A stretch of DNA of 29,131 nucleotides from a virus. Made by a program: the position numbers and the translations under genes. The notes beneath the pieces are model-generated. The model was not told the origin of the DNA and made no database searches. It saw only the letters and a program-made list of their open reading frames with translations. The stretch's first letter is position 1, and each line of letters starts with the position of its first letter. Shown here piece after piece: positions 2,699 to 28,076 of the stretch. The DNA is taken from positions 1-29,131 of the IMG/VR virus record IMGVR_UViG_3300028029_000004. One strand, given 5' to 3'.

Positions 2699-3064
2699 AT
2701 GAATAAAGTATTAATGGTTCTAGTTGTACTGGGAATGCTCGCGTGCTCGAACCCAGAGTGTCCTGTGGTGAGTGGTAACAAAGAGGTATCTGTGTCTATG
2801 GAGATATCAGGTACCGTAGAGAGTTGCAGGGTAAGATACCAGATTAACGGTAAAGACTTCGTTCCGTGGATATATATTAACAATGCGATGCCAGAGGTCA
2901 GGGAACTCAGCGTAACGCCTGGAACATATGTTAATATCGAGCTTGAGTTGTTATCAAGTAGTGGGTGGTTGCGTCTATCTCTACATGCTAATGGGCAGGA
3001 GTACACAACGTATACAGAAGAGTCTTACGGGTCATTATCTCTGAATGTATTGATAGAACAATAA
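2699..3064 (+). CDS. Lipoprotein (121 aa), paralogue of 27717-28076
   Basis: AGGAGG SD. Signal peptide MNKVLMVLVVLGMLAC with lipobox L-A-C. The mature part is beta-rich and resembles the second lipoprotein in length and C-terminal pattern. Confidence 0.75.
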   Translation: MNKVLMVLVVLGMLACSNPECPVVSGNKEVSVSMEISGTVESCRVRYQINGKDFVPWIYINNAMPEVRELSVTPGTYVNIELELLSSSGWLRLSLHANGQEYTTYTEESYGSLSLNVLIEQ

Positions 3065-22963: not shown

Positions 22964-23266
22964 ATGTTTAGGTGGATAAGACAGCACCCTAAACTCACGA
23001 TACTCACACTATCCTTATGCGTTCCGGCTGTGTATGGCAGCATTACGTGGATATCGGGTGTTGATAGGGTGATAGATGATTTTCCCGTAACCAGACAGGA
23101 TGTGACTGAGGTTATGGTCGATAACGCTCGGTTGGAAACAGAGGTAGATGCTTGCCAAAGCAGGATATATGACCTTGAAAAACATCAGATAGAATTGTTA
23201 CAGGCGATACCCCGAATTGATGCCAACCTGGAGTGGATCAGGCAGGCGCTGGAAGAAGGTAAATGA
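22964..23266 (+). CDS. Membrane-anchored coiled-coil protein (100 aa), possibly a lysis accessory (i-spanin- or holin-like)
   Basis: ATG lies 1 nt after the zinc-ribbon stop. N-terminal transmembrane segment LTILTLSLCVPAVYGSITWI is followed by the heptad-like stretch ARLETEVDACQSRIYDLEKHQIELLQ. The ORF-track start at 22829 runs across the SD-led zinc-ribbon ORF. Confidence 0.5.
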   Translation: MFRWIRQHPKLTILTLSLCVPAVYGSITWISGVDRVIDDFPVTRQDVTEVMVDNARLETEVDACQSRIYDLEKHQIELLQAIPRIDANLEWIRQALEEGK

Positions 23267-23421
23267 CAATGAAGGACAAGCTGGTGTGGTACCTGAAACA
23301 ACTGCTCCCGCTGAAATACTACTCTGAGTACAAGCTCAACGGTGTACCTTACACATGCCGCTGGCGCATGTGGTTCGGGCGCTGCTTTCAAATCGATGAA
23401 AGACTGGTGGTGTTCGAATGA
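23263..23421 (+). CDS. Hypothetical 52-aa protein with an LLPLKYY...WRMWFGRCF motif (not in ORF track)
   Basis: ATGA overlap with the upstream stop and a GAAGG SD. Translation MTMKDKLVWYLKQLLPLKYYSEYKLNGVPYTCRWRMWFGRCFQIDERLVVFE. Confidence 0.5.
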   Translation: MTMKDKLVWYLKQLLPLKYYSEYKLNGVPYTCRWRMWFGRCFQIDERLVVFE

Positions 23422-23585
23422 CCTGGAACATGAGAAGCAAGCGGTTTCTGATGGCGCTGATGGTGTTTGCCGTGTGGGTGGCTACCCTGATCCTGGACAA
23501 AGACCTCTTCCGCTGGCTGACTCCATACGCGCTGGGGGCAGTGGCTGCGTGGATGGGGTGGGATTCATGGAAGCCACACACATAA
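23418..23585 (+). CDS. Two-transmembrane-helix 55-aa protein, holin/pinholin candidate (not in ORF track)
   Basis: ATGA overlap. Translation MTWNMRSKRFLMALMVFAVWVATLILDKDLFRWLTPYALGAVAAWMGWDSWKPHT. Stop TAA 23583-23585. Confidence 0.5.
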   Translation: MTWNMRSKRFLMALMVFAVWVATLILDKDLFRWLTPYALGAVAAWMGWDSWKPHT

Positions 23586-23590
23586 AAAAA

Positions 23591-23607
23591 CCCTGCATGG
23601 TGCAGGG
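23591..23607. terminator. Stem-loop CCCTGCA-tgg-TGCAGGG preceded by A7. It is a canonical intrinsic terminator only when read on the minus strand.
   Basis: Perfect 7-bp stem. A-run at 23584-23590 upstream and no T-run downstream on the + strand. Confidence 0.45.
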
Positions 23608-23646
23608 ATACCCGAGAGGGTGATTTACTCTTGAAAGGAGTAACAG

Positions 23647-24258
23647 ATGAAAACTTATAGTAACAGGAAACTATCCAAACTGGTCAGGATATTGATCGAT
23701 GGTACTCAGATCATCTCAGGGGCCAGACAGAACTCTGATAATGTAGGCACGGTAGGGGCTACCACTGTAGCTGCTACTGAATATGGTGACGGCATGCACC
23801 ACGTCACTGTGCTTACATTGACAGACTTCGTCGTAGGGGCTCCAGGGGCTGGAGCAAATAAGGCTTTCGGAGCAAAGGTATACTCTTTCCCGGCAGGAGT
23901 CCATGCTCACCAGATTACCAGGTTTAACTTGGGTCTGACTCAAGGCGGAGTAACTACGGACACGCCTGACGTTGGTATTGGGTCTGTCGTGGGTACCGGG
24001 GCCGTTGCCGTTCTTGGCGGAACCGCTACTTTCGAGGATTACGTTACAGGACAGACATGGGGTGTAGCCCTAGACGGTACTCTGCAGGCTTGTGCGCCAC
24101 TTGGAGCCACTGCGGGTATTAATACAGGCATTTCTCTTAATGACACCTCAGATGTCAAAGATGTGTTCTTAAACGTTGCTGATGGTTGGAATGCCGGGGT
24201 AACCGGTAACCTTACAGCCAACGGCACAATAGTACTAATCTGGGACACGGTGGTATAA
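23647..24258 (+). CDS. Hypothetical Gly/Thr/Val/Ala-rich beta protein (203 aa)
   Basis: AAGGAG SD. No transmembrane segment or catalytic motif recognised. Confidence 0.55.
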   Translation: MKTYSNRKLSKLVRILIDGTQIISGARQNSDNVGTVGATTVAATEYGDGMHHVTVLTLTDFVVGAPGAGANKAFGAKVYSFPAGVHAHQITRFNLGLTQGGVTTDTPDVGIGSVVGTGAVAVLGGTATFEDYVTGQTWGVALDGTLQACAPLGATAGINTGISLNDTSDVKDVFLNVADGWNAGVTGNLTANGTIVLIWDTVV

Positions 24259-24400: not shown

Positions 24401-24841
24401 ATGTTTGATTTAGCCGAATACAGCGAACGATTAAGTGACAAACTGTCCCCCTCTACACGATTATCTGAGCATTTCAAAGCATCTGAGCTATCGTGTGCGT
24501 GTTGCGGGAGGGTATTTATCTCTCCAGTAGTGCTAGAAATGCTTGAAAGGCTGAGAGAGAAACTTGGTTGTGCGATATTGTTGAATCCTCGCGAGGGTAT
24601 GGGTAGTGGATATCGTTGTCCTGCTCATAACAGTGATATCAGGGGGGCTACTCATTCCAGACATTGCCTCGGATTAGCAGTAGACGTTCCATTACCCACC
24701 AAATACTTGCACCTTCCCGAAGAATTCGCATTTATAGTGGAGTCTGTGGCTAGACAAGTTAGGGGAGGCTTCCACTATTACCCCGAGAACCGTTTTGCAC
24801 ACATGGATGCCTGGGCATGGCCACCGAACAGAAGGTGGTAA
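24401..24841 (+). CDS. Endolysin, zinc peptidase M15 family (Peptidase_M15_3 / DUF882-like)
   Basis: GGAGGGGG SD. Motifs HFKASELSC, GSGYRCPAHNSDIRGATHSRHCLGLAVDV and AHMD are the H/D/H zinc-ligand pattern of M15 cell-wall peptidases. Confidence 0.85.
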   Translation: MFDLAEYSERLSDKLSPSTRLSEHFKASELSCACCGRVFISPVVLEMLERLREKLGCAILLNPREGMGSGYRCPAHNSDIRGATHSRHCLGLAVDVPLPTKYLHLPEEFAFIVESVARQVRGGFHYYPENRFAHMDAWAWPPNRRW

Positions 24842-24844
24842 AGT

Positions 24845-25501
24845 ATGTCTGTCAACTTATCATTCAAGATCAATATAGGAATAATTCTCTCAGTTGTGGC
24901 TGTAATCTTCATATTCATTCTAAGGCCGTTTTCCTGCCATTCTAGCCCATCTAATAAAAACTGGCACGTACTACACTCAGGATTAAAGAATCTGTCTTAC
25001 GCACAGGCCGAGCCTATAAATTTAGCGAAATTACATGATTTTACTCCGGAGATTAAGGATAACACCATATCTACCTCTATCACTGAAGGAATATGGACGC
25101 CCGATTCTGTGTATACTCCAGAAGACACTCTGATTGTTACCGCGTCTGGTATTACCCTGGCTGACAACACCCATTGGACACGCATAACCATAGATGGTAA
25201 GCCCGTGACCGTATTAAAAGCCGAATACTACAGCAGGAACATTCAAAGACGCTGGATCGTACTGGTAGAAACCACTAATAATGCCGGTATAGGTGCCGGG
25301 ATAGGTTATAACCTGTTTTCGCTTGCCGGTATTGACGCCGTGTCTGCTGTTTCCATCTCAATTCGTGGCAACTGGATAGCTCCGGAGGTTAGAATACAGC
25401 AGAATATCTGGAGCGGAATAGCAATAGGGGCTGGTATAGGGTATAGGTTCGGGGATTCAGAGGGTATTCACTTATCTGCAGGAGTTAGCCTGGAGATTTA
25501 G
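24845..25501 (+). CDS. Membrane protein with an N-terminal transmembrane anchor and a C-terminal OMP-like Gly-rich beta region (218 aa). Candidate non-canonical spanin/disruptin.
   Basis: GAAGGTGG SD. Transmembrane segment INIGIILSVVAVIFIFIL. The C-terminal ~90 aa have alternating hydrophobic residues and repeated GIGAGIGY motifs (NAGIGAGIGYNLF, GIAIGAGIGYRFGD). It follows the endolysin directly. Confidence 0.6.
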   Translation: MSVNLSFKINIGIILSVVAVIFIFILRPFSCHSSPSNKNWHVLHSGLKNLSYAQAEPINLAKLHDFTPEIKDNTISTSITEGIWTPDSVYTPEDTLIVTASGITLADNTHWTRITIDGKPVTVLKAEYYSRNIQRRWIVLVETTNNAGIGAGIGYNLFSLAGIDAVSAVSISIRGNWIAPEVRIQQNIWSGIAIGAGIGYRFGDSEGIHLSAGVSLEI

Positions 25502-26187: not shown

Positions 26188-26409
26188 TAGACAGATCCGA
26201 AAAGTTCTTAAAAGGGGGTATTTCTAATAGACCCATTCCCCCATTTCGGGGAGCGTGGGACGCAACAACTTAGGGGATTGCCACCTAGACAGATCCGAAA
26301 AGTTCTTAAAAGCGAGTATTCCAAATGTCCGTTTAACGGACTTTAGAAACTCTAACCCATTCGCCCGATTCGGCGAGCGTGAGACACAACAACTTAGAGA
26401 CCTTTTTTT
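26188..26409 (+). repeat. Two tandem composite modules (box A 27 nt + box B 42-nt hairpin). Candidate tandem structured ncRNAs or iterons. Ends in a T7 run.
   Basis: Box A TAGACAGATCCGAAAAGTTCTTAAAAG at 26188-26214 and 26286-26312 (27/27). Box B at 26232-26273 and 26356-26397 (36/42). Stem TTCCCC/GGGGAG in copy 1 versus TTCGCC/GGCGAG in copy 2 is a compensatory change. Closing helix CTCTAA/TTAGAG, then ACC and T7 at 26403-26409. Confidence 0.7.
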
Positions 26410-27716: not shown

Positions 27717-28076
27717 ATGAACAGAGCAAGATTGGTGACTGTAACGCTAGGATTATTTCTCTTAGTAATGGCTTGTAATGGGAATGATGTTATGGGCCCG
27801 GATACAACTTCGACAGTGACATATAAAGTTGTAAGTGACGCAGATTCGGTACGGGTGGAATATCTGGATGCGGATTGTATGTATATTGTTGACGTATTAT
27901 CCTCTCCTTGGGAAATATCTATTCAGAAAAAGATTGGTACGCTTGCATATTTAGCGGCGTATAATCTGAGTGAGACCGGGAGTCTTACGATTATGATCAC
28001 TATTGATGGACACGATTACCGCCGGCATACCGAAGCTCCTTGGGGATGGCTTGAGTATATGCTAGTGGTGGAATGA
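27717..28076 (+). CDS. Lipoprotein (119 aa), paralogue of 2699-3064, MmpS-like beta-sandwich pattern
   Basis: AAAGGA SD 9 nt before ATG 27717. Signal peptide MNRARLVTVTLGLFLLVMAC with lipobox V-M-A-C. The mature part (TVTYKVVSDADSVRVEYLD.....SPWEISI.....GSLTIMITIDGHDY) resembles MmpS-type proteins. Confidence 0.7.
   Translation: MNRARLVTVTLGLFLLVMACNGNDVMGPDTTSTVTYKVVSDADSVRVEYLDADCMYIVDVLSSPWEISIQKKIGTLAYLAAYNLSETGSLTIMITIDGHDYRRHTEAPWGWLEYMLVVE

Follow-up and report, generated by a model that had tools for sequence, protein, structure and literature searches.

What is the role of the gene that directly follows the endolysin gene at the end of a phage lysis region, when its product combines a hydrophobic N-terminus with a C-terminus resembling that of an outer-membrane protein (OMP)? 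The question has a wider setting: Kongari et al. 2018 (PMC6139136) report no recognisable spanin in 13% of the phage genomes analysed, and how such phages get through the outer membrane is largely an open question. The original prediction, made from the letters of the DNA, was that this gene might encode a last-step lysis factor, possibly a single-component spanin of reversed topology, or else a Lom-like or superinfection-exclusion protein.

The window, by which we mean the whole stretch of DNA analysed (29,131 bp), is the whole of the IMG/VR virus record IMGVR_UViG_3300028029_000004; it has direct terminal repeats, and reads as the genome of a small siphovirus-like phage. Replication genes (an O-like initiator and a DnaB-like helicase) are followed by those for the large terminase, portal, major head protein and tape measure; next come large tail genes, the lysis region (~22.8-25.5 kb), a 992-nt non-coding stretch and then the early genes. 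That non-coding stretch, which lies after the gene of interest, contains two direct-repeat families (26188-26397; 41-43 nt, 86-90% identical). A scan of the large ORFs turned up no integrase, and the window yielded no tRNA or Rfam element. The terminase shares at most 30% identity with those of phages of many phyla, the capsid has no match, and close cultured relatives of the phage were not found. The features on which the argument turns are as follows.

2699-3064 and 27717-28076 (+): two paralogous lipoprotein genes, products of ~120 aa, with canonical lipoboxes (…GMLAC and …LVMAC)
22964-23266 (+): type II (N-in) transmembrane (TM) protein of 100 aa, with an acidic periplasmic coiled coil of ~70 aa containing a Cys; i-spanin-like by its features only
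23418-23585 (+): holin-like protein of 55 aa with two hydrophobic segments; positional homologue in a related locus (L002 9362-9541)
24261-24383 (+): Lys-rich coiled-coil ORF of 40 aa; counterparts in two related loci (L002 8935-9078, L004 7583-7413)
24401-24841 (+): single-domain Peptidase_M15_3 endolysin (PF08291, E 2e-10; PHROG 894 ‘endolysin’, 3e-19)
24833-24838 (+): Shine-Dalgarno sequence AGGTGG, within the end of the endolysin gene and 6 nt before the next ATG
24845-25501 (+): last gene of the late/lysis operon, encoding the 218-aa protein (P0001) considered here

The gene does begin right after the stop codon of the M15 endolysin, as had been noted, with 3 nt between the TAA (24839-24841) and the ATG at 24845, and with a ribosome-binding site of its own. 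Its GC content is 0.44 (0.448 for the genome), and a consensus scan detected no promoter or terminator above shuffle level between the two genes. In Pfam and PHROG searches the endolysin showed no signal, SAR or wall-binding domain, the holin-like protein had no family match, and the ORF at 22964-23266 gave only weak XhlA/Snapin coiled-coil matches. The earlier statement that the lysis region holds neither an Rz/Rz1-type pair nor a lipoprotein ORF survives in its second half, as no lipobox ORF is present there, but is qualified in its first by the i-spanin-like ORF. The two lipoprotein paralogues, which are 25% identical (E 5e-8), are found in the early/replication regions, and a weak relative (E 1e-4) sits directly upstream of the endolysin gene in another locus (L099, 2746-3105); exclusion and the part of a separated o-spanin are both possible roles for the two paralogues.

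Database searches with the 218-aa protein were, for the most part, silent. Pfam and PHROGs gave nothing significant, a word-seeded protein search recovered the protein itself only (and three relatives when given a profile), neither P0001 nor P0016 had a tblastn match in 50,697 phage records, and a profile search of PDB sequences gave nothing. An exhaustive HMMER search of 1.84 billion representatives returned 38 relatives (best E 6e-51), of which 23 have an E-value of at most 1e-10; nearly all of the 38 are 190-235 aa in length and match over their whole length. Every relative that we looked up stems from a metagenome assembly; a single one has an NCBI entry, and all are unnamed. In a set of one genome per GTDB species, neither P0016 nor a degenerate motif pattern picked up a member of the family. 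The product of 24845-25501 is a real, conserved, phage-borne family and not an orphan. One member, P0015, has a long N-terminal extension that we considered as a possible fusion and rejected, since it looks like a mis-called start.

Loci of relatives were collected with a degenerate DNA pattern (W-S-G-[VI]-x2-G-x-G-x-G-Y-R) followed by a family HMM filter; 13 loci resulted, and the genome-per-species collection contributed none. Nine independent contexts include upstream sequence, and in eight of these (the window and seven others) the family gene abuts or overlaps an endolysin gene. The neighbouring enzyme is a Peptidase_M15_3 endolysin in the window, L020 and L064, and an Amidase_2 endolysin in L002, L004, L055/L099, L088 and L054, such that the linkage is kept across two unrelated endolysin types and at 25-45% identity. 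The one exception is L011, where the family gene is not next to an endolysin gene. Both L002 and L004 keep the Lys-rich coiled-coil mini-ORF together with a TM plus coiled-coil ORF, and L002 also has a two-TM holin-like ORF. The TM plus coiled-coil ORFs (L002 9075-9365, L004 7413-7132) occupy the place that matches 22964-23266 in the window but have the opposite charge bias, and so may not be its orthologues. No lipobox ORF is present in loci L002, L004, L054, L021 or L064, and no credible lipoprotein ORF was found in any frame of the whole 32.7-kb terminal-repeat record (G406) that holds L002. By the criterion of Kongari et al., the G406 phage has neither an o-spanin nor a u-spanin, yet the family gene occupies the spanin slot.

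Several other small genes in these cassettes deserve a mention in their own right. A 40-56-aa ORF encoding a coiled coil with a Lys-rich tail is retained in the lysis cassettes of three diverged phages (the window, L002 and L004). Between the holin-like gene and the endolysin gene of the window lies a 203-aa ORF (23647-24258, +), rich in Gly, Thr, Ala and Val and with no family match; it falls within the kilobase of highest GC content (0.505), hairpins precede it (23591-23622), and it has no counterpart between the holin-like/TM plus coiled-coil genes and the endolysin gene in L002 and L004. A 52-aa window ORF (23263-23421) has a homologue directly downstream of the family gene in another phage (L014, 266-448), with which it shares …LKQLLPLKY…C.WRMWFGRCF…, suggesting that small cassette genes shuffle around the family gene.

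A structure prediction had been put forward as a check on the proposed anatomy. With the single sequence AlphaFold2 (AF2) performed poorly (pLDDT 36) and that model was discarded; with a 39-row family alignment it gave a model with a pLDDT of 90.2 and a pTM of 0.69, in which both the N-terminal helix and a C-terminal six-stranded barrel are predicted. The parts of the protein can be laid out as below.

24869-24922 (+): hydrophobic helix, residues 9-26, a signal-anchor or signal peptide (hydropathy; AF2 helix 11-26)
24935-24937 (+): Cys31, the sole Cys of the protein, membrane-proximal (family alignment)
24962-25240 (+): predicted folded helix-plus-beta domain, residues 40-132 (AF2 pLDDT 87-98; conserved consensus G-x-W-x-P-x4-T-P-x-D-T-L-x-V)
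25241-25498 (+): predicted mini beta-barrel, six-stranded and up-and-down, residues 133-218 (AF2 model; family columns)

The hydrophobic N-terminal stretch was therefore correctly recognised. In the model it is followed by a less confident segment (27-39) that carries the Cys, and then by a helix (40-49) and strands up to residue 130; what had been described as a ‘~100-aa soluble linker’ is instead, in large part, this confidently folded domain. The six long strands of the predicted barrel (137-144, 148-160, 163-172, 177-189, 192-203 and 207-217) are joined by connections of just 2-4 residues, leaving almost nothing that could be exposed at the cell surface. Two Gly motifs fall within it, GIGAGIGYNL (148-157) and AIGAGIGYRF (193-202); the duplication of GIGAGIGY(N/R)(L/F) that was originally reported is present in both copies, although the second is not exact (7/8 positions).

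The alternating hydrophobicity reported for the C-terminus is upheld, and exceeds chance: over residues 137-218 the beta-moment has a z of 3.6, a value reached by 3 of 2000 shuffles, and the alternation of the barrel strands is maintained column by column in 39 sequences. One set of columns has a mean Kyte-Doolittle value of about +3 (I, V, L, A, F), with Y/W toward the strand ends; the other is made up of Gly (G150, G152, G195, G197, the invariant G199, G207 and G213) or conserved polar residues (E142, R183, S185, R201 and H209). Given this conservation and the small radius of a six-stranded barrel, we infer, rather than read from coordinates, that the Gly/charged face lines the inside and the hydrophobic face the outside, as would be the case in a barrel embedded in lipid and contrary to what a soluble barrel shows.

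A C-terminus of the form polar-x-G-x-x-hydrophobic-x-hydrophobic is that of the beta-signal recognised by BAM. The window protein ends in S-A-G-V-S-L-E-I, and positions -1 and -3 are hydrophobic in 38 of the 39 members, with L (19), F (15) or I (4) as the last residue; the single exception, P0038, has three extra residues after the motif. The stricter pattern just given is found in 23/39. From shear and strand number, strands of 10-13 residues at a tilt of ~45 degrees could cross the core of the outer membrane. The predicted domain shows two features of OMP barrels, namely the C-terminal beta-signal and a hydrophobic exterior with a small/polar interior, but lacks another, at least eight strands, as the monomer model has six. 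All known natural outer-membrane cases are closed barrels of at least 8 strands; a six-stranded natural membrane barrel would have no precedent, and the model may thus stand for an oligomer or be an artefact. Foldseek against the PDB returned nothing below 1e-3, and the best BFVD match is an uncharacterised protein (4.4e-5) with a low TM-score.

Turning to the N-terminus, the helix is preceded by a conserved motif, W/L-x-F/I-K/R-V/I-S/N, shared by members that are only 30-40% identical. The uncharged stretch is 12-24 residues long across the family (16-18 in the window protein), nearly all members carry a net charge of +2 to +4 on the N-flank, against an average close to zero on the C-flank, a bias that favours N-in insertion. 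A Cys follows the helix by 0-6 residues; it is aligned in all 23 of the N-termini compared and is present in ~29/33 full-length members. The residues at -3 to -1 before it are PFS in the window protein and vary freely in relatives (K, D, R, F and L included), hence the conserved Cys is not a lipobox, in agreement with what had been concluded from the RPFSC context alone. We accordingly rejected a lipoprotein reading of Cys31; the same genome has textbook lipoboxes (LAC, MAC) in two other genes. A lone conserved periplasmic Cys suggests instead an intermolecular disulfide.

Whether the helix stays with the protein is the point at which a first alternative has to be weighed. If it were a cleaved signal peptide, the mature product, an outer-membrane mini-barrel with its periplasmic domain, could still act in lysis, either as a non-lipoprotein o-spanin that pairs with an inner-membrane protein (here the product of ORF 22964-23266) or as a stand-alone destabiliser. 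The beta-signal and OMP-like barrel are what this would lead one to expect, OMPs normally require release from the inner membrane, and the C-x-S that is frequent after the helix in the family is a candidate signal peptidase I site. The window moreover offers an i-spanin-like ORF with a periplasmic Cys, and Kongari et al. 2018 (PMC6139136), who note that their own criteria take no account of other anchors, raise as a possibility only that ‘an OMP could act as an o-spanin’. Against this, the TM plus coiled-coil ORFs of L002 and L004 are N-out by charge bias, so that no type II partner is conserved with the family; and the length of the uncharged stretch (median ~17), the invariant Cys that follows it and the conserved motif before it, as judged from sequence, would be unusual for a disposable signal peptide. 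On balance we think such a cleaved form unlikely, and take retention of the helix as an anchor as the basis of our preferred reading.

The genomic setting bears on a second alternative, that of an OMP unrelated to lysis, a moron-type gene (for superinfection exclusion, receptor masking or a Lom/Ail-like surface protein) riding at the end of the late operon. OMP genes are common in phage genomes (as in BFVD rows named ‘outer membrane protein’), the features of the predicted barrel are OMP-like, the phage of the window invests in envelope proteins (its two lipoproteins), and the L011 gene lies away from an endolysin gene. A moron would, though, sit uneasily with the lack of a promoter, terminator or compositional island of its own, with a linkage that survives a swap of endolysin type and divergence to 25-45% identity, and with predicted surface loops that leave little to expose; in addition, with no integrase among the large ORFs scanned, lysogenic conversion is unlikely. 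The Lom-like or exclusion role that was originally allowed for is weakened by the same points, although the OMP-like features and L011 still fit it, and we hold a non-lysis OMP to be distinctly improbable. A third proposal, that of an inner-membrane-only accessory of the holin-endolysin system (an antiholin, a releasin-like protein or an endolysin regulator) whose beta domain is periplasmic or soluble, draws on the N-terminal TM helix, the place in the cassette and a best structural match to a soluble designed barrel, and is very improbable given a conserved C-terminal beta-signal and a hydrophobic-outward, Gly/charged-inward arrangement opposite to that of a soluble barrel.

Synthesising these findings, our preferred reading, to which we give a probability of about 0.42, is that the 24845-25501 product is a late, endolysin-coupled envelope protein acting in the last step of lysis, as a single-chain spanin analogue whose predicted anchors are inverted. 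We suggest that the helix would insert N-in and remain in the inner membrane, that the Cys would form an intermolecular disulfide, as in Rz/Rz1, and that the C-terminal barrel would be placed in the outer membrane by BAM, such that the chain would tether both membranes through the murein mesh and be held captive by it up to the point when the endolysin acts. Once the murein had been removed by holin and endolysin, the short periplasmic part may compact and draw the membranes together, and the outer membrane would then be ruptured or fused. The last-step role proposed at the outset is in this way partly supported, by a conserved family, linkage to two endolysin types with no intervening promoter or terminator, a non-lipobox Cys, and the OMP-type polarity and beta-signal of the barrel. 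That the host has a diderm envelope is something we infer from two things only, the protein itself and the small, single-domain endolysins.

Several observations pull the other way. The folded periplasmic part (~105 residues in the model) looks too short to span a 20-nm periplasm unless partly unfolded, which counts against a tether, as would a six-strand monomer model that may hide an oligomer or be wrong on closure. The i-spanin-like ORF at 22964-23266 and the two lipoprotein genes elsewhere could together make up a conventional, separated spanin, again arguing against the tether, and signal peptidase I could cleave at the C-x-S after the helix, a sequence feature that counts against an inner-membrane anchor. 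The spanin-analogue reading itself has to contend with the L011 gene that lies away from an endolysin, and with the lack of a periplasmic Cys in all 58 known u-spanins (Kongari et al. 2018).

In spite of these points, the family offers a plausible new way, as predicted from its modelled anatomy, for phages to break the bacterial outer membrane. In a 2025 survey (PMC12596118), TM segments and lipoboxes are still what defines a spanin; the spanin finders now in use demand a lipobox, and proteins like the 24845-25501 product are consequently invisible to them. Were the proposal true, it would provide an architecture that can be searched for (a helix at the N-terminus, a mini-barrel bearing a beta-signal at the C-terminus, and a post-endolysin position), a candidate minimal barrel for the BAM field, and a compact genetic part with which to disrupt the outer membrane of non-model hosts. 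Were the protein a non-lysis OMP instead, it would still represent an unnamed and confidently foldable phage family, with a barrel topology reported by designers as almost absent from nature.

How does the protein compare with known systems? Our literature searches found no description of a barrel-anchored spanin, nor of DUF6808, a family to which we return below. With lambda Rz/Rz1 it would share the N-in inner-membrane anchor of Rz, the same genomic slot and a conserved periplasmic Cys, predicted to be able to make covalent homodimers. Unlike Rz, it has no coiled coil, and its periplasmic part is beta with a single 10-residue helix; unlike the Rz1 o-spanin, it has no lipobox and is 218 aa long; and unlike the pair as a whole, it has no lipoprotein partner in the cassette, the predicted outer-membrane anchor being on the same chain.

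Another parallel in arrangement is the T1 gp11 u-spanin (Kongari et al. 2018, PMC6139136), which is likewise the last gene of its lysis cassette and beside the endolysin gene, with a single chain predicted to hold both membranes, a beta-rich periplasmic part and a canonical endolysin. The window protein differs from that type, which is marked by an outer-membrane lipoprotein signal at the N-terminus and a TM helix at the C-terminus, in having its helix at the N-terminus and its predicted beta-barrel at the C-terminus, with no lipobox and no C-terminal TM helix (the C-terminus is amphipathic beta), and Pfam and PHROG searches found no sequence similarity to T1 gp11-type spanins. It also keeps a periplasmic Cys; the same paper reports such a residue in almost all two-component spanins and in not one of the 58 u-spanins.

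As an OMP the predicted barrel would be equally unusual. OmpX/Ail/Lom, the OmpA N-domain, OmpW and PagL have eight or more strands, against its six, and differ from it also in that it has next to no surface loops; unlike small OMP barrels generally, it comes with an extra N-terminal domain and a long hydrophobic N-terminus and has no Pfam match above threshold. The YadA anchor (PF03895) gave sub-threshold matches in 2/39 members (best E 0.0045), and contributes four strands per chain, as against the six in our model. Structurally, the best match is BBn6 (PDB 9xzt), a barrel designed de novo, at 5% sequence identity; unlike the predicted window barrel, this designed protein is soluble and its core is hydrophobic, and its authors describe the fold as rarely if ever seen in nature (PMC12478100).

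Outer-membrane disruption by other means has a precedent, to which the same comparison can be extended. Disruptin gp28 of phage phiKT (bioRxiv 10.1101/515445) provides, like our proposal, a non-spanin way of disrupting the outer membrane in a phage without recognisable spanins; unlike the window protein, gp28 is, by the title of that paper, a cationic antimicrobial peptide and not a membrane-anchored barrel. The nearest ESM Atlas clusters of the window protein (scores 0.93-0.94) are partly annotated as DUF6808 (PF20647). Disruptin gp28 itself is small and amphipathic.

DUF6808 proteins, from Bacteroidota phages and prophages, also carry a TM helix at the N-terminus and, at the C-terminus, a G-x-G...G-Y hairpin with F as its last residue; unlike the window protein, they contain a coiled coil and apparently just a single hairpin at the end. 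Membership of the window family in DUF6808 was tried and rejected: the window, L002 and L004 proteins gave no match even at E 10 (threshold 24.4 bits), whereas those of phages TCUEAP3 and Molly pass, and no member of the 39-row alignment matches the Pfam model at E 0.1. An hhalign comparison of the two families gave a weak match of the last hairpin only (E 0.006, probability 6%). We therefore treat DUF6808 proteins as an analogous class and not as kin. Among the examples located (L140 1492-2373, −, in a Bacteroidota prophage; L142 3027-3731, +, in Elizabethkingia phage TCUEAP3; L143 3003-3695, +, in Maribacter phage Molly), the gene comes just after the endolysin gene in the prophage and in TCUEAP3, and does not in Molly.

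DUF6808 proteins may be another unrecognised spanin-like class. The boldest form of our proposal would have a natural six-stranded transmembrane barrel, smaller than any known OMP, fused to an inner-membrane anchor, with disulfide-linked single chains that tether and then fuse or rupture the two membranes, and would make this family, along with analogous families such as DUF6808, the outer-membrane step so far missing from many ‘spanin-less’ phages of non-model diderms; taken as a whole this is possible, if doubtful. Set beside the systems described above, the position of the gene and the predicted anatomy of its product, from which its function has been deduced throughout, fit an as yet undescribed variant of the spanin idea.
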